A DNA stretch of 4,384 bases from a virus (Duplodnaviria; Heunggongvirae; Uroviricota; Caudoviricetes): IMG/VR virus record IMGVR_UViG_2778261418_000017, one strand, 5' to 3'. Under the pieces are notes generated by a model. The model searched no databases. It worked only from the letters and a program-made list of their open reading frames with translations, and had not been told where the DNA came from. Below, piece by piece: positions 1 through 4,246 of the stretch; within the stretch, counting starts at the first letter, position 1, and the number at the start of each line of letters is the position of its first letter. A program made the translations under genes and the position numbers.

Positions 1-164
1 AGTTTTTTGGATGCCAGCAACTGATTGAACATATTTCCTGTTTTGCCACCACCTATATACGACCAACGCCCCCACATCCGTAATTTCCCCTGGATCCAGA
101 CGGCTTCCAGCGTTTTTAGACGTAAATGCTCGCCGCTTTTGCCTGTAATTTCCGGGTATATCAT
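1..164 (-). CDS. Partial CDS (N-terminal part, runs off the window start); possible phage late-gene antiterminator Q-like protein
   Basis: Hand translation of the minus strand from ATG at 164-162 is open to position 1: MIYPEITGKSGEHLRLKTLEAVWIQGKLRMWGRWSYIGGGKTGNMFNQLLASKK. It starts 8 nt after the rusA stop, where Q sits in lambdoid prophages. The RMWGRW segment loosely recalls the LERWGAW N-terminus of Q-family antiterminators (from memory). Not in the supplied ORF track because it is truncated. Confidence 0.3.
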   Translation of the reverse strand, partial: MIYPEITGKSGEHLRLKTLEAVWIQGKLRMWGRWSYIGGGKTGNMFNQLLASKK

Positions 165-172
165 ATTTACGA

Positions 173-538
173 TCACTCACTCTCAATTTTGTAAATCTTC
201 ACGCCCAGCCGCCCCCCAGGAACGCGCTGACCGCGCACAATATTGATTTCATCAAACTGCTCGTCGTCTATGAGAAGTCCGGCATGCGTCAGCGCATCCA
301 GTGGAGCTTTCAGGATATTGTCCAGGTCACGACGACGTTTATCCGGTGGCTCTGCAATAATTTTTATTGCCAGCCTTCCGGACAGGTTCAATTTCAGTCG
401 CTGCTGGCGAACAATGAGCGCCACATCACGGCGATAACGCTCACCGGCTTTTGATACAAAATATGTACTGCCACGACGTCGCCAGTAGGTGTTCACCGTC
501 GGCGGGTAAGGCAAAACAAATTCTATGCGTTCAGTCAT
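173..538 (-). CDS. rusA: RusA-family Holliday junction resolvase (crossover junction endodeoxyribonuclease), prophage-encoded
   Basis: 121-aa ORF. The translation (VNTYWRRRG...YRRDVALIV...RRRDLDNILKAPLDALTHAGLLIDDEQFDEINIVRGQ) matches the RusA family as I recall it, about 120 aa with a conserved acidic DxD/DD...E core. ATG at 538-536 directly abuts the TGA stop of the upstream gene (541-539). Confidence 0.8.
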   Translation of the reverse strand: MTERIEFVLPYPPTVNTYWRRRGSTYFVSKAGERYRRDVALIVRQQRLKLNLSGRLAIKIIAEPPDKRRRDLDNILKAPLDALTHAGLLIDDEQFDEINIVRGQRVPGGRLGVKIYKIESE

Positions 539-1597
539 TCATGCTTTCCACTTCAGGACACCCGAATTTCTCGCGTGCATTAAAAAACGAATCAGCAACA
601 ACAGCTGGCTGCCGTGTTTTTCTTCAAAATCTTTTACCCCGGCGTGCAGTTCGTTATGACATTTACGGCACAGCGGAATAACAAACAAATCGTCAGTCTT
701 TGTTCCCATCCCTCCCAGTCCATAGCCAATGATGTGATGCGGATCATCTGCCTGATTGCCACAAGTCATGCATTTCTGCGTTTTTACCCAGCGCGTGTAT
801 ACGGGCATCTCTTCCCGCTGTGGTTTCTGACGCTGGAGATACTGAGTCGGAGACTCCGGATCAACGGCAATGCTGACCACCGTCTTTTCCTGTGGTGGGT
901 TCTGTTGCTGGTGGACGTGAGGCGGTAACGCAATATTTTTTGTGCGCTGCTTCAGCATGCTGGTGGCGGTCGGTTCTCCCGGTATGATGTCGCTTTCGCG
1001 GTACACTGAGCGGATTTTTTCCGCACGTAACCCCAGAGAACGACGTAATACTACCTCCGGTAGTGCGTCCGCCACCTGATTGCAGACAGCCCACCAGGAT
1101 AATTCAGCCAGCGATAATTCCCGCTCCTGCGCGCCATTCATTACATGGCGTATGACGTCAATCATCCATGCTGACAAATTTTGGTGAGCAAGTTGCCCGA
1201 GTGATTCGGAGGTCTGGTCACGCAGCTGGTTGTCGCAGTGCCAGCACAACACCATTGCGCCGGTACCATATCGGTGAATAACGGTTTCGCTGTGATGATA
1301 ATCGCCGTGTGGCCACTGGCAGGATTTGACATGACGCAACAGCCAGTCAGACAGTGCCCCAGCACCACCAGCAGCACGAATCACCCGCTCATCGCTGAAA
1401 AATGGCAGTAATGATTTATCCTCCGCCAGCGGCTGGCGAACAGCAGGAACGACTCCGGACGGCAGACCGCGCATGCTTTTCGGTTCCGGCTCCACCAGAA
1501 CTCGAGGGTTATGAAATACCTGCATGGATTCACGGCCCGGTTTTAGCACCACCAGCCCAAGTTCCGGTACCGGAACAGGTCGAAGTAATACCCGCAC
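539..1597 (-). CDS. YdfU-like prophage protein (DUF968-type) with C-terminal HNH-like zinc-finger motif
   Basis: 352-aa ORF with a GTG start at 1597-1595, preceded by a strong Shine-Dalgarno (CTGGAGGTAAC-GTG on the minus strand). The C-terminus CMTCGNQADDPHHIIGYGLGG...LCRKCHNELH has the CxxC...HH...CxxCH layout of HNH-type nuclease zinc fingers. Size and position between a small protein and rusA/Q match Qin-prophage ydfU as I remember it. Confidence 0.65.
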   Translation of the reverse strand: MRVLLRPVPVPELGLVVLKPGRESMQVFHNPRVLVEPEPKSMRGLPSGVVPAVRQPLAEDKSLLPFFSDERVIRAAGGAGALSDWLLRHVKSCQWPHGDYHHSETVIHRYGTGAMVLCWHCDNQLRDQTSESLGQLAHQNLSAWMIDVIRHVMNGAQERELSLAELSWWAVCNQVADALPEVVLRRSLGLRAEKIRSVYRESDIIPGEPTATSMLKQRTKNIALPPHVHQQQNPPQEKTVVSIAVDPESPTQYLQRQKPQREEMPVYTRWVKTQKCMTCGNQADDPHHIIGYGLGGMGTKTDDLFVIPLCRKCHNELHAGVKDFEEKHGSQLLLLIRFLMHARNSGVLKWKA

Positions 1598-1598
1598 G

Positions 1599-1877
1599 TT
1601 ACCTCCAGATGCGTTGCTGGTATGTGCGGGATGAACGCGGTGGGCGTTCGGAGTAAGGGAGTCTGACTGAGATTATCCAGTGACGGTAGTCGAGGCTAAG
1701 AGCTTTCTTAACCTCGTATCCGCGCCTGCGGTAACACTGAATTATCCATTCCGCCTGCTCTTCAGTGCATGGAGGATGCTGGAACCAATCTGATTTGAAT
1801 GCGTGAAAACGCCGTCCGCACCTACTGGCAAAGACGGCAGAATCATTAGAATTGTGTAATTTGGTATCGTGCGCCAT
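1599..1877 (-). CDS. Small prophage protein of unknown function (92 aa from the internal ATG; the longer 119-aa ORF to 1958 is less likely)
   Basis: Open frame ending in TAA at 1601-1599, three nt before the GTG of the next gene. The longest ORF start (1958) would make the terminator T-tract code FFPGF, so I prefer ATG at 1877-1875 (MAHDTKLHNS...). It occupies the position that rem has downstream of hokD in Qin-type prophages, but I cannot confirm identity from memory. Confidence 0.45.
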   Translation of the reverse strand: MAHDTKLHNSNDSAVFASRCGRRFHAFKSDWFQHPPCTEEQAEWIIQCYRRRGYEVKKALSLDYRHWIISVRLPYSERPPRSSRTYQQRIWR

Positions 1878-1950
1878 CGGTTGTCTCTGCTGGCGCAGCA
1901 GGTGCCAGTTGTTCAGGCTGGCGTGCGGATTGTAAACCAGAAAGCCCGGA

Positions 1951-1976
1951 AAAAACAAAACCCGCCGTAGCGGGTA
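1951..1976 (-). terminator. Rho-independent terminator downstream of the HTH-ImmA gene
   Basis: On the minus strand the sequence reads ACCCGC-UACG-GCGGGU followed by UUUUGUUUUUU: a GC-rich 6-bp stem with a UACG tetraloop and a T-tract (plus coordinates 1961-1975 stem-loop, 1951-1960 tract). It lies immediately 3' of the stop at 1980-1982. Confidence 0.7.
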
Positions 1977-1979
1977 TGC

Positions 1980-3083
1980 TCAAACAATCTGAAAAATATT
2001 TCTTGGATTTGTAATAGGTCGATTGATGGAGAACAACTCACGAATTAAATCTTGACTCAAGCCAGTTTTCATAAGAATGCTTAACCAAGTTGCATCATCC
2101 AGCATGTCAATCGCTTCGGACAGCATACTTGGTTCTTCGGGGCGCAAAAGTTCATCACCAGGTTCAACTCTCGTGTACCCTCTAGAATTAAGATGCATAT
2201 AGCCAGTTCTTGCCTGTTCCTGGGTCAATAGTCCTAATGCACTGGCTCGATAAATACACATTTTAAGGCTAATTTTCCATCTAAGCTTAAATTCAACCAG
2301 AGCACTCCAATCGAATTGCTTACCTCGTATTCGTGGAAATTCTTTAATGAAAGATAGCCTAGGAACCAATAATGCGCTAGAAAAGTGATCAGCTTGTGAT
2401 TCCGTAAGTTTATCACCAGTAGTTATGCCCTCATGCATTACTAAATGCCCTAACTCATGACCTAAATCAGAGCGAAATCTACATATGCTTTTTTTTACAT
2501 TGTTCCTGATAATAACAGGCCTGTTATTGTGAACAGTGAATGCATCAACACGATCATCGACTCCCGTAACATGCGCAACGATTACCCCCAAACTCTCCGC
2601 CAATTTCACCATTGATGATATAGGGCCAAGACCTAGATTCCATGCACGGCGACAATCTTCTGCCACTCGCTCAATATCATTCGGGGTAAGTAATTCAGTT
2701 CCGGGGTGCTCTGGTATGTTGACATCAGGGAATTCGATTTCACCTTCAACAGCAGAAATTATAATATTAAGAATCTCAGCCCTGGCCAAGACACTATTAG
2801 TCAGCGTTTGAGTCCTGGACTTCTTACTCCGAAAATGGCAAACATCGCTTTCCAGAGCATATTTTCGCTCAGTAAATAGAAAATCGGACTTAATCATAAG
2901 AGCTGAGGCTATTAACTCCAAGCATCGCTCTGATGGCCTAAATCCCTTCTCCAATTTGCTAACGAATTGCTTTGTTTTGCCAATTTTTTCGGCCAACTCT
3001 TCACATGAAAGCCCAACAGCCATTCTTGCTAGTTTGAGCTTATCGCCTCGATACTCAGTGAAGTTATTCACCTGATGTTCCAT
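1980..3083 (-). CDS. Fusion protein: N-terminal XRE/Cro-C1-type helix-turn-helix DNA-binding domain plus ImmA/IrrE-family (COG2856, M78-like) zinc metallopeptidase domain with C-terminal extension
   Basis: 367-aa ORF. Residues about 14-70 (LKLARMAVGLSCEELAEKIGKTKQFVSKLEKGFRPSERCLELIASALMIKSDFL) follow the canonical XRE HTH pattern. Residues 209-213 are HELGH (plus 2445-2459), in the context SDLGHELGHLVMHEG typical of ImmA/IrrE peptidases. Shine-Dalgarno-like GAGCAG precedes the ATG at 3083-3081. AT-rich codon usage. Confidence 0.85.
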   Translation of the reverse strand: MEHQVNNFTEYRGDKLKLARMAVGLSCEELAEKIGKTKQFVSKLEKGFRPSERCLELIASALMIKSDFLFTERKYALESDVCHFRSKKSRTQTLTNSVLARAEILNIIISAVEGEIEFPDVNIPEHPGTELLTPNDIERVAEDCRRAWNLGLGPISSMVKLAESLGVIVAHVTGVDDRVDAFTVHNNRPVIIRNNVKKSICRFRSDLGHELGHLVMHEGITTGDKLTESQADHFSSALLVPRLSFIKEFPRIRGKQFDWSALVEFKLRWKISLKMCIYRASALGLLTQEQARTGYMHLNSRGYTRVEPGDELLRPEEPSMLSEAIDMLDDATWLSILMKTGLSQDLIRELFSINRPITNPRNIFQIV

Positions 3084-3714
3084 TACTGCTCACATCCAAA
3101 TTTTTATCCTTCGTACGCCGACGAAGAGACACCTTATTAATCTCCGCTTCGCCAGGGAGTGTGTTACCGTCAAGGGACATAAGTGGCATTGATGCTGTAG
3201 ATTGATGAGAAACCATACTAATCTGAGCACCATAGGTATTAAACCCAACAAGAGCCACCTCCCAACGAGGCAGTGTGGACTCTAATTCACCATCTCCCTC
3301 TTCGGATAAAAATGGCTCCGCTATGACTCGCCATGTAATATCTTGCTCAGCCTCAACATCACCAAACAATGAAAGCTGCTCATGCTCTACTTTATTTCGA
3401 CGCAGGCGATGTTTCTTTTTGGGGTTATTAATGCAATCTTTGGTAAATTGTAGCGGAACTTTATTTAAAGCAACTACATAGTCCAACCCCTTGGAAATCA
3501 TCTTAAGACCAGGAATTGCGCCTTCATTTTGAATAAGATGGTTTCTGACCCAATCATAAGCCCTTACACCTTCAGACCAGTTGCTGTCTAATACGTGCTT
3601 ATGATAGTACAACTGCTCAAGTACGTTAGCGATCTCCGCCAACAACTGGCGAACATTGCTTTCAGCAAGATAAGGTTGAAATTCCCAACAAGGAGCTAAC
3701 TGATTTTCATTCAT
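3064..3714 (-). CDS. Hypothetical protein, 216 aa, no recognisable family; first gene of the two-gene cassette
   Basis: Long uninterrupted ORF, antisense only to a short shadow ORF. ATG at 3714-3712, TAA at 3066-3064, overlapping the downstream HTH-ImmA start by 20 nt. Contains a basic stretch PKKKHRLRRNK (residues 98-108, plus 3391-3423) flanked by acidic segments. I recognise no catalytic motif. Confidence 0.7.
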   Translation of the reverse strand: MNENQLAPCWEFQPYLAESNVRQLLAEIANVLEQLYYHKHVLDSNWSEGVRAYDWVRNHLIQNEGAIPGLKMISKGLDYVVALNKVPLQFTKDCINNPKKKHRLRRNKVEHEQLSLFGDVEAEQDITWRVIAEPFLSEEGDGELESTLPRWEVALVGFNTYGAQISMVSHQSTASMPLMSLDGNTLPGEAEINKVSLRRRTKDKNLDVSSNGTSGE

Positions 3715-3744
3715 TTCAAGTTTCGCTTTTTTTAGAATTCGTAA

Positions 3745-3778
3745 ACCTTATATTTTCGCATTTTCCTGTTTTTGTCAA
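3745..3778 (-). promoter_or_regulatory. Putative sigma70 promoter for the two-gene cassette
   Basis: On the minus strand a perfect -35 TTGACA (plus 3773-3778) is followed by A/T-rich candidate -10 hexamers (AAATAT at 17-nt spacing, or TATAAG at 20 nt), about 40 nt upstream of the ATG at 3714. The -10 assignment is ambiguous. Confidence 0.4.
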
Positions 3779-3793
3779 CCAGACTAATGCATA

Positions 3794-3811
3794 AACCCGC
3801 CGAAGCGGGTT
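3794..3811 (-). terminator. GC-rich stem-loop (UUCG tetraloop) downstream of hok; probable terminator or 3' stabiliser
   Basis: Plus sequence aacccgc-cgaa-gcgggtt. On the minus strand this is AACCCGC-UUCG-GCGGGUU followed by UAUGCAUU, a moderately U-rich tail. It is nearly identical to the hairpin at 1961-1975. Confidence 0.5.
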
Positions 3812-3850
3812 ACGTGCGGGTGCGTTGAGGATGCCTGCCACATCAGAGGT

Positions 3851-3872
3851 GGCGAGGGATTTCTCCCTCGCC
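3851..3872 (-). other. Perfect 9-bp stem-loop immediately 3' of the hok stop (hok mRNA 3'-end structure)
   Basis: ggcgaggga-tttc-tccctcgcc is a perfect inverted repeat with a 4-nt loop, starting 8 nt after the hok stop codon. It has no T-tract, so it is more likely an mRNA 3' structural element than a terminator. Hok mRNAs are known to carry structured 3' ends. Confidence 0.5.
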
Positions 3873-3879
3873 TGGTCTC

Positions 3880-4035
3880 TTACTCCTCAGGTTCGTAAGC
3901 TGTGAAGACAGCGACCTCCGTCTGGCCGGTTCGGATTCGTACCTCGCAGAGGTCTTTCCTCGTTACCAGTGCCGTCACTATGACGGTTAAACAGATGACG
4001 ATAAGGGCGATTAACATCGCCTTTTGCTGCTTCAT
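3880..4035 (-). CDS. hokD: Hok/Gef-family small membrane toxin (type I toxin), HokD/RelF-like
   Basis: 51-aa translation MKQQKAMLIALIVICLTVIVTALVTRKDLCEVRIRTGQTEVAVFTAYEPEE matches E. coli HokD as I recall it: single transmembrane helix, conserved Cys, acidic tail. Strong Shine-Dalgarno AAGGAG lies 9 nt upstream of the ATG at 4035-4033. The ORF track shows an in-frame 19-codon upstream extension (ATG at 4092). Confidence 0.85.
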   Translation of the reverse strand: MKQQKAMLIALIVICLTVIVTALVTRKDLCEVRIRTGQTEVAVFTAYEPEE

Positions 4036-4156
4036 AGCCTGCTTCTCCTTGCCTTTCGGCACGTAAGAGGCTAACCTACATTTGTGAGACATAGATTGGG
4101 CCTCAGATTAATGTTAAGCGTCCTGCAAGACGCGTAATGTTAACTGGGGCTTTTCT

Positions 4157-4193
4157 CTATCTGCCTTTTGGTGTTCATGCCTGAGGCAGATAG
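4157..4193. promoter_or_regulatory. 9-bp perfect inverted repeat (ctatctgcc ... ggcagatag) in the hok upstream leader; candidate RNA structure or operator
   Basis: ctatctgcc at 4157-4165 is the exact reverse complement of ggcagatag at 4185-4193, with a 19-nt spacer. A second overlapping imperfect hairpin is tgaggc-agata-gcctca at 4182-4198. It sits where the hok mRNA 5' regulatory region would be. Confidence 0.3.
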
Positions 4194-4246
4194 CCTCAAG
4201 CACCCGCAGCAATTCTACTTAACTCTCCTTTTCCCGCAAACCGTTT

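Follow-up and report, generated by a model that had tools for sequence, protein, structure and literature searches.

Zinc peptidases of the M78/COG2856 type, which carry an HExxH motif, act with XRE helix-turn-helix (HTH) repressors in the CapH/CapP, DdrO/IrrE and ImmR/ImmA pairs, and IrrE cleaves DdrO at L106-R107. The two domains are also found in a single polypeptide: over half of COG2856 peptidases are fusions with Xre, and COG2856-Xre genes often occur in operons with toxin genes, in phages and prophages (Makarova 2009; PMC2701414). In Vibrio mimicus MGIVmi1, the 198-aa Vmi480 protein encoded by the first gene of such a pair is lethal, while the 362-aa Vmi470 protein, with an HTH and a Zn-peptidase, neutralises Vmi480 and is not deletable alone (Luo 2015; PMC4671572). 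A homologous pair from a prophage of Escherichia coli E101, E101_02645/02644, makes clpP essential (Rousset et al.). The names RosmerTA and RmrA come from the Millman 2022 preprint, where delta-rmrA could not be transformed, and ImmA-type RmrA has since been described as a hub antitoxin that ‘often possesses a small N-terminal HTH’ (Ernits et al.; PMC10440598). Toxin-antitoxin (TA) behaviour is established for RmrTA of Gordonia phage Kita (PMC10440598). For RipAB of Streptococcus pneumoniae, a member of the Rosmer family, neutralisation needs ClpX, in line with the clpP result for E101, and the authors list several models of neutralisation, including transcriptional repression alone (PMC12795458). 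Here we examine a 367-aa protein of this architecture and its 216-aa partner, encoded in a 4,384-nt stretch of DNA (hereafter the window) from a virus of the Caudoviricetes (IMG/VR record IMGVR_UViG_2778261418_000017). We put at about 85% the probability that the larger protein is an RmrA that serves as antitoxin, and probably also as autorepressor, of a RosmerTA anti-phage cassette, carried as a moron in the nin region of an E. coli lambdoid prophage.

Searches of several profile collections place the 367-aa protein in a known family, the RmrA antitoxins of RosmerTA, in which it is nothing out of the ordinary. Fourteen RmrA models of PADLOC match this protein (best PDLC03943, E = 3.7e-105, residues 11-349), the PADLOC capP and capH models match it weakly (1.9e-14 and 1.6e-5, respectively), and the RmrT model PDLC03929 (198 positions) matches the 216-aa open reading frame (ORF) with E = 3.5e-25. 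The features that define the family are thus found together, namely an M78 peptidase with HExxH and an N-terminal XRE HTH in the antitoxin, and an adjacent, co-oriented partner matched by an RmrT model. In PHROGs, the larger protein belongs to phrog_2439 (E = 4.9e-123), a family labelled ‘transcriptional regulator’, and the smaller to phrog_5786 (E = 4.8e-83). Identical sequences from E. coli had already been deposited at NCBI for both proteins, the 367-aa protein as EFC0660176.1, with labels of ‘ImmA/IrrE family metallo-endopeptidase’ or ‘XRE family transcriptional regulator’, and the 216-aa protein as EFC0660175.1, a ‘hypothetical protein’. Much about this protein is therefore already known: the HTH-M78 fusion was catalogued in 2009, PADLOC and DefenseFinder recognise it as RmrA and its exact sequence has been deposited. 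Comparison with the experimentally verified RosmerTA of E. coli OLC-716, whose sequences were taken from the supplementary table of the Millman et al. 2022 preprint, gave 29% identity over 301 aa for RmrA (E = 5e-35), while BLAST detected no similarity between the two RmrT proteins. An unrelated OLC-716 toxin beside a matching antitoxin fits the described partner-swapping of RmrA. The NCBIfam model NF052239 (‘spr1629 family repressor/antitoxin’) aligns with residues 11-355 of the window RmrA (E = 4.1e-45) at a score of 154.5 bits against a cut-off of 335 bits, indicating a related architecture and not an equivalog.

A first-pass annotation, made from the sequence alone, had claimed an HTH at about residues 14-70 and a HELGH motif at residues 209-213 of one polypeptide, and profile searches and structure prediction both confirmed this. 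Pfam detects HTH_3 (residues 16-62, E = 2.9e-8), HTH_31 (residues 13-62) and Peptidase_M78 (residues 176-281, E = 3.8e-11), all exceeding the Pfam gathering cut-offs, and HELGH occupies exactly the residues given (nt 2445-2459). An AlphaFold2 model built from an alignment of 55 homologues (predicted local distance difference test (pLDDT) 88.7; predicted template modelling score 0.86) contains an HTH of five helices (13-23, 27-34, 38-45, 52-61 and 66-70) and a zincin domain in which helix 200-216 bears HELGH and helix 225-239 bears E228. The linker between them (residues 71-91) is modelled with lower confidence, with a pLDDT of ~61 around a C-H-F-R motif. The annotation had further described a C-terminal extension of 150 aa; some 65 residues (300-367) do form an additional helical module, while the part from 214 to ~300 belongs to the zincin domain and includes E228. 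Its view of the fusion as a departure from the classical separate pairs does not hold, as fusion to Xre is the more frequent state of COG2856 (PMC2701414).

Foldseek found the HTH region nearest to the N-terminal domain of CapH, SinR and the 434 repressor, and the peptidase part nearest to CapP (7t5t, E = 4.9e-5), IrrE (3dti) and PprI bound to single-stranded DNA (ssDNA; 8sln). For CapP and IrrE, the aligned region is confined to the peptidase part (~165-170 columns). In the AlphaFold2 model and the Foldseek alignments, only ~65 helical residues follow the catalytic domain, and no GAF-like C-terminal domain with an ssDNA groove was found; an ssDNA-sensing mechanism identical to that of CapP/IrrE is therefore not expected. 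The RmrA profile also matches, over the peptidase region (E = 2e-8), chain A of PDB entry 9vzy, a 393-aa ‘HTH cro/C1-type domain-containing protein’ that combines an HTH at its N-terminus with an M78-like domain. This entry is possibly the first solved structure of a fused protein similar to RmrA.

Conservation was read from alignments of 55 sequences with identities down to 36%. The active-site residues H209, E210, H213, H217 and E228 are invariant, and E228 is a candidate third zinc ligand; HExxH on the active-site helix, a downstream Glu and the predicted fold are those of a zincin (AlphaFold2, Foldseek). Since the catalytic residues are invariant, we predict that the RmrA peptidase is catalytically competent, which accords with what the first-pass annotation had read from the intact HEXXH. 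Among the best conserved parts of RmrA is the recognition-helix region T37-x-Q39...K43-x-E45, in which Q39 and E45 are invariant and T37 and K43 are kept in at least 90% of sequences. H83-F84-R85 in the interdomain linker is likewise invariant, usually preceded by Cys, and the F-R is also present in the verified OLC-716 RmrA, making C-H-F-R a candidate pseudosubstrate or self-cleavage site. A search for homologues gave 332 proteins, and nearly all of the 120 listed have 347-387 aa and both Pfam domains (for some of these 120, PF06114 was the only precomputed domain, and a few were shorter partials). An assembly or frameshift artefact as the origin of the fusion was rejected given this abundance of two-domain homologues of 347-387 aa.

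The 3' end of rmrT overlaps the start of rmrA by 20 nt, and the pairing of the two genes is strongly conserved. Among 80 distant loci, drawn from representative genomes in which RmrA has 32-66% identity to the window protein, 78 have a gene of the window's toxin family directly before rmrA, in the same orientation and with the two genes abutting or overlapping. These loci come from Gamma-, Beta-, Alpha- and Deltaproteobacteria, Chlorobiota, Nitrospirota and Acidobacteria; the same toxin family is also upstream of rmrA in four further loci (L002, L004, L006 and L008). The toxin family itself is sparse, with 37 representatives at E <= 0.001 among 1.84 billion cluster representatives. No Pfam domain was found in RmrT, and its structural model (pLDDT 80.5) has weak and non-reproducible neighbours. 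In one of the loci, from an Escarpia endosymbiont (L069 25-2001), the ORF upstream of rmrA with a match to the RmrT profile, taken as the longest ORF, has 658 aa and is either an over-extended call or a toxin with extra N-terminal sequence.

Upstream of rmrT we detected a tandem unit with the pattern GGTTGACA-N13-GC, and the corresponding consensus, RGTTGACAWA-N9-WTTGCA, occurs in two or three tandem copies upstream of rmrT in other, unrelated genera. We counted the core motif in 81 non-identical upstream regions, using shuffled sequences and the opposite strand as controls. At least one GTT[GT]AC was present in 66/81 regions (shuffles: mean 8.5, maximum 16; opposite strand: 4), two or more copies in 49/81 (shuffles: mean 0.39; opposite strand: 0) and a pair 30-38 nt apart in 41/81 (shuffles: mean 0.035, maximum 1; opposite strand: 0). 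Similarly, GGTTGAC occurs in 50/82 upstream regions versus 0/82 coding controls, and the GC located 20 nt downstream is kept in 84/126 units. The full pattern has one occurrence in the window and one in the corresponding 28-kb prophage locus (L001). Because the signal extends past the hexamer, includes the conserved GC and is tandemly repeated, we regard the units as candidate operator sites; that they are operators for the RmrA HTH is plausible and would fit an autoregulating antitoxin of a type II TA module with a conserved recognition helix. A simple palindromic operator was considered and rejected, as the window holds only a weak palindrome (TTTACGAATTCTAAA) and the conserved signal is the tandem direct unit. 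In a subset of distant loci (19 cases, among them L032, L057, L071 and L081-L083), the GTT[GT]AC cores are 19 nt and not 31-34 nt apart, which suggests that operators are arranged in a second way in part of the family. The first-pass annotation had proposed an autoregulatory or self-processing switch or, alternatively, action on the co-encoded 216-aa protein, and had pointed to the 3715-3790 region as the promoter. That region does contain the conserved repeat units, which makes autoregulation plausible on comparative grounds, and action with the partner is borne out, the partner being RmrT and accompanying rmrA in nearly all distant loci.

All convincing genes of the window are on the minus strand (Table 1). 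The G+C content of 1950-3750 is 0.36-0.46, compared with 0.50-0.58 in the flanks, and an intrinsic-terminator-like hairpin 5 nt past the rmrA stop marks the end of the two-gene rmrT-rmrA operon. Downstream of hokD, a further hairpin is predicted to insulate the rmrTA promoter from hok transcription, although a simple terminator scan did not call it. Low G+C, the terminator after rmrA and the hairpin after hokD together indicate that rmrT and rmrA form a self-contained cassette. The window is the nin/moron region of a lambdoid prophage, in which the RosmerTA cassette is placed between hokD/sok and the DUF968-RusA genes. The same gene arrangement occurs in E. coli strain A10, in a prophage integrated beside mtfA and a tRNA-Ser gene, where it is flanked by the replication genes on one side and the Q antiterminator on the other.

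Table 1. Features of the window, with positions counted from its first letter
Feature	Position (nt)	Strand	Basis or remark
sok antisense RNA	4205-4030	-	Rfam RF01794, 121.7 bits
hok (Hok ORF)	4092-3880	-	Pfam HOK_GEF, 3e-23; transcribed first in the window
Hairpin AACCCGCTTCGGCGGGTT with short T run	3795..3815	-	Downstream of hokD; inverted repeat found by script
Promoter/operator region	3721..3780	-	Two tandem 27-nt units, 33 nt apart
Unit 1, GGTTGACAAAAACAGGAAAATGCGAAA	3780-3754	-	Direct repeat D1
-35-like TTGACA	3778-3773	-	Within promoter/operator region
Unit 2, GGTTTACGAATTCTAAAAAAAGCGAAA	3747-3721	-	Direct repeat D1
rmrT, 216-aa toxin candidate	3064..3714	-	ORF; PADLOC RmrT; first gene of operon
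rmrA, 367-aa antitoxin/repressor candidate	1980..3083	-	ORF with ATG start; Pfam, PADLOC and PHROGs matches
XRE-type HTH domain, residues 13-70	2874..3047	-	Pfam, AlphaFold2, Foldseek
Linker motif C-H-F-R, residues 82-85	2829..2840	-	Alignment; translation checked
Zincin (gluzincin-like) catalytic domain, residues ~92-300	2184..2810	-	Pfam M78, AlphaFold2, Foldseek
C-terminal helical module, residues ~301-367	1980..2183	-	AlphaFold2; helices 320-327, 330-340 and 344-351
Intrinsic-terminator-like hairpin ACCCGCTACGGCGGGT followed by TTTGTTTTTT	1950..1975	-	Terminator scan; after rmrA stop
Small 119-aa ORF	1958-1599	-	ORF listing; downstream of rmrA
DUF968/HNH protein	1597-539	-	Pfam
RusA	538-173	-	Pfam

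Among described systems, the RosmerTA of OLC-716 shares with the window a toxin-first two-gene operon and a ~370-aa antitoxin that joins an XRE HTH at the N-terminus to an M78 domain with HExxH, and differs in its toxin family. The Vmi480/Vmi470 and E101 pairs resemble the window cassette in layout: a toxin of ~198-216 aa lacking recognisable domains comes first and abuts or overlaps the gene of a 362-373-aa HTH-Zn-peptidase antitoxin that is not deletable alone, and the E101 pair is prophage-borne like the window cassette. We infer from this resemblance that the cassette is a RosmerTA module of a Vmi480-like toxin subtype. The RefSeq accessions of the E101 pair differ from those of the two variants that we found in E. 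coli (WP_000401169.1 and WP_032253521.1; WP_000418464.1), and cluster look-ups for toxin relatives of 194-204 aa gave Vibrio fluvialis, Aeromonas and Pseudovibrio, not V. mimicus. RipAB (Spr1630/Spr1629) has the same HTH-ImmA antitoxin architecture and is placed by its authors in the Rosmer family; its toxin RipA targets the DnaN clamp, whereas nothing ties the window RmrT to DnaN. The CapH/CapP, DdrO/IrrE and ImmR/ImmA pairs resemble RmrA in joining an XRE HTH repressor to an M78/COG2856 peptidase. Unlike these pairs, RmrA is one polypeptide whose gene is downstream of the toxin gene and not divergent from a regulated operon; it also differs from CapP/IrrE in having no GAF-like C-terminal domain and no identified cysteine-switch insertion, and from CapH/CapP and DdrO/IrrE in acting as an antitoxin and not as a DNA-damage-responsive regulator of other genes.

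These comparisons lead us to propose the following mechanism, that of an autoregulated TA/abortive-infection module in which RmrA serves as repressor and antitoxin alike. The rmrT and rmrA genes would be co-transcribed from a promoter at ~3780-3745 and translationally coupled through their 20-nt overlap. The XRE HTH of RmrA would bind the tandem GGTTGACA-N13-GC units at this promoter and repress its own operon, as the comparative data suggest, and RmrA would keep RmrT harmless, loss of the antitoxin alone being lethal in homologues described in the literature. The M78 zinc peptidase, given the invariance of H209, E210, H213 and E228, is probably active and may be the regulated element. By analogy with IrrE, ImmA/ImmR and CapP/CapH, the enzyme would be expected to cleave a substrate that bears an HTH, and because peptidases of this type cleave HTH partners, one option is that RmrA cuts its own linker near H83-F84-R85, which would free the HTH and either derepress the operon or destabilise the antitoxin. 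The resemblance of F84-R85 to the scissile bond of DdrO makes it, by analogy, a candidate cleavage site. The other option is that the peptidase processes RmrT. A phage or stress cue may then upset the balance, leaving RmrT free to arrest or kill the infected cell, as proposed from other Rosmer systems, and ClpXP may help to hold the toxin in check.

A bolder version of this mechanism, which we offer as a speculation with a small chance of being right, takes C-H-F-R as an intramolecular pseudosubstrate or self-cleavage site and RmrA as a single-chain, ‘LexA-like’ metalloprotease repressor within a widespread RmrT(Vmi480-like)/RmrA subfamily. Autocleavage would free the HTH from the tandem GGTTGACA operators and release a toxin of a fold unseen in solved structures, with ClpXP clearing the fragments. 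If true, this LexA-like autocleavage would be the first mechanism for a Rosmer hub antitoxin. Three experimental handles, the tandem operator-like unit, the invariant catalytic residues and the invariant H-F-R linker motif, bear on what the peptidase of a Rosmer antitoxin cleaves and on how ClpXP fits in.

Several points weigh against the assignment of RmrA as an autoregulating, phage-defence antitoxin. A simple sigma-70 scan called no promoter upstream of rmrT, and the best -10-like hexamers have a spacing of 15 to 20 nt from TTGACA; the promoter assignment consequently rests on the conserved TTGACA-containing unit. That core could partly be a -35 element, so that part of the conserved signal would be promoter, and the units, as read from the sequence, are not clear palindromes. 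Phage protection is known for OLC-716 (Millman 2022 preprint) and phage Kita RmrTA (PMC10440598), which have other toxin families, and anti-phage activity of the window subtype is an extrapolation, the toxin being unrelated to the phage-tested OLC-716 RmrT. Toxicity, neutralisation and defence by the window alleles are likewise attributed by analogy with homologues, and we infer the link to Vmi480/Vmi470 and the E101 pair from architecture, protein sizes and the identities given by Rousset et al. No protease substrate is reported for any RmrA in the literature surveyed (PMC12795458). Lastly, in the PD-lambda-2 system it is an Xre-peptidase protein that is toxic.

The last of these points raises the possibility that the roles are reversed or mixed, with the Xre-peptidase as toxic effector and the 216-aa protein as its restraint. 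In PD-lambda-2, the HigA-like Xre-peptidase is toxic alone and rescued by an upstream component, and COG2856 was first listed as a predicted toxin (Makarova 2009; PMC2701414). We find such a reversal scarcely credible for the window, because in two-gene systems of the same architecture the peptidase protein is harmless alone and the upstream protein lethal (PMC4671572), delta-rmrA was not obtainable (Millman et al. 2022 preprint) and PADLOC assigns the window proteins to RmrA and RmrT, not to PD-lambda-2. It is also very improbable that the protein regulates immunity or induction of the prophage itself, as a fused switch between lysis and lysogeny of the ImmR/ImmA type with no TA function, even though ImmA/ImmR and Rir/Crh-type pairs control the induction of mobile elements, the gene is inside a prophage and the PHROGs family bears a regulator label. 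The site, from hokD to DUF968-RusA-Q, is a nin/moron region and not an immunity region, and this prophage carries its regulator, replication and YdaT genes separately, at other sites. Moreover, the cassette is bounded by a terminator and an upstream hairpin, with G+C below that of its flanks, its operator-like pattern is found nowhere else in the 28-kb prophage locus, its toxin partner is strictly conserved and its relatives also occur outside prophages, beside GAPS4 or between transposases.

A closer competitor, although one we still judge unlikely, is a purely transcriptional, fused switch resembling CapH-CapP or DdrO-IrrE, in which RmrA would repress rmrT, sense DNA damage or ssDNA and cleave itself to lift repression, with no neutralisation at the protein level. 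The nearest peptidase folds are indeed those of CapP, IrrE and PprI-ssDNA, the PADLOC capP (1.9e-14) and capH (1.6e-5) models match weakly, fused CapH-CapP proteins occur in 15 CBASS and some DISARM operons, and an operator-like repeat is conserved at the promoter; the authors of the RipAB study were, in addition, unable to exclude repression as the neutralising mechanism (PMC12795458). Gene order is difficult to reconcile with this explanation, since rmrA is downstream of rmrT in one operon and derepression would raise both products, while CapH/CapP genes and the operon under their control are usually arranged divergently. RmrA also has no counterpart of the GAF-like domain that contributes the ssDNA groove of CapP/IrrE. 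Finally, co-expression of the Vibrio proteins from a foreign PBAD promoter still neutralised the toxin, evidence in favour of a post-transcriptional effect (PMC4671572).

With RmrA as antitoxin thus preferred, the prophage cassette can now be annotated as RosmerTA with a toxin of the Vmi480-like subtype, replacing relBE-type cargo beside hokD. The cassette is present in 237/5426 complete E. coli genomes (~4%). In E. coli 14EC001 it is 99.3% identical, and the neighbours were the same in both matches with flanks examined (E. coli A10 and 14EC001). Over 96% of the window (1-4228), the mean identity to 14EC001 is 92.0%, and in most other genomes the cassette is at ~94% identity. This mosaic of identities (1-1950 versus 1950-3800) suggests that lambdoid prophages have exchanged either the cassette or its flanking DNA by recombination. 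In E. coli there is a second variant, with 58% (RmrA) and 41% (RmrT) identity to the window proteins, which also lies in a lambdoid prophage and adjoins hokD; in this variant (L002, L089), the cassette is upstream of hokD, between a DUF977 gene and hokD. A megablast of the cassette against 50,697 phage records gave no match, although both proteins belong to PHROG families.

Loci from Pseudomonas and Alteromonas were reached by exact protein look-ups, and their rmrTA genes are located between transposases, beside GAPS4 or in another prophage. In Alteromonas macleodii, rmrTA (L006 4553-6611 and L007 2901-4959) adjoins a GAPS4 system (PDDEXK_GAPS4 and GAPS4b_N), a site consistent with a defence-island location. 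In Pseudomonas aeruginosa (L004 and L005), DDE transposase genes (DUF772/DDE_Tnp_1) flank rmrTA on both sides and a DUF4917 gene is nearby; here the cassette may move as transposon cargo.

Two observations concern the neighbours of the cassette within the window. The small ORF downstream of rmrA (1599-1958) has no match in Pfam, PADLOC or NCBIfam, and phrog_1212, of unknown function, matches it at residues 54-119 only; the ORF is probably shorter than listed, as the hypothetical protein that PGAP places at the equivalent position (L001 13414-13692) has 92 aa. On the other side, a complete hokD/sok type I toxin-antitoxin locus (3880-4205) lies directly upstream of the RosmerTA cassette, with a Hok ORF of 70 aa as listed where PGAP calls a 51-aa HokD. 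The prophage nin region thus holds two addiction- or defence-type modules back to back, hokD/sok and RosmerTA.

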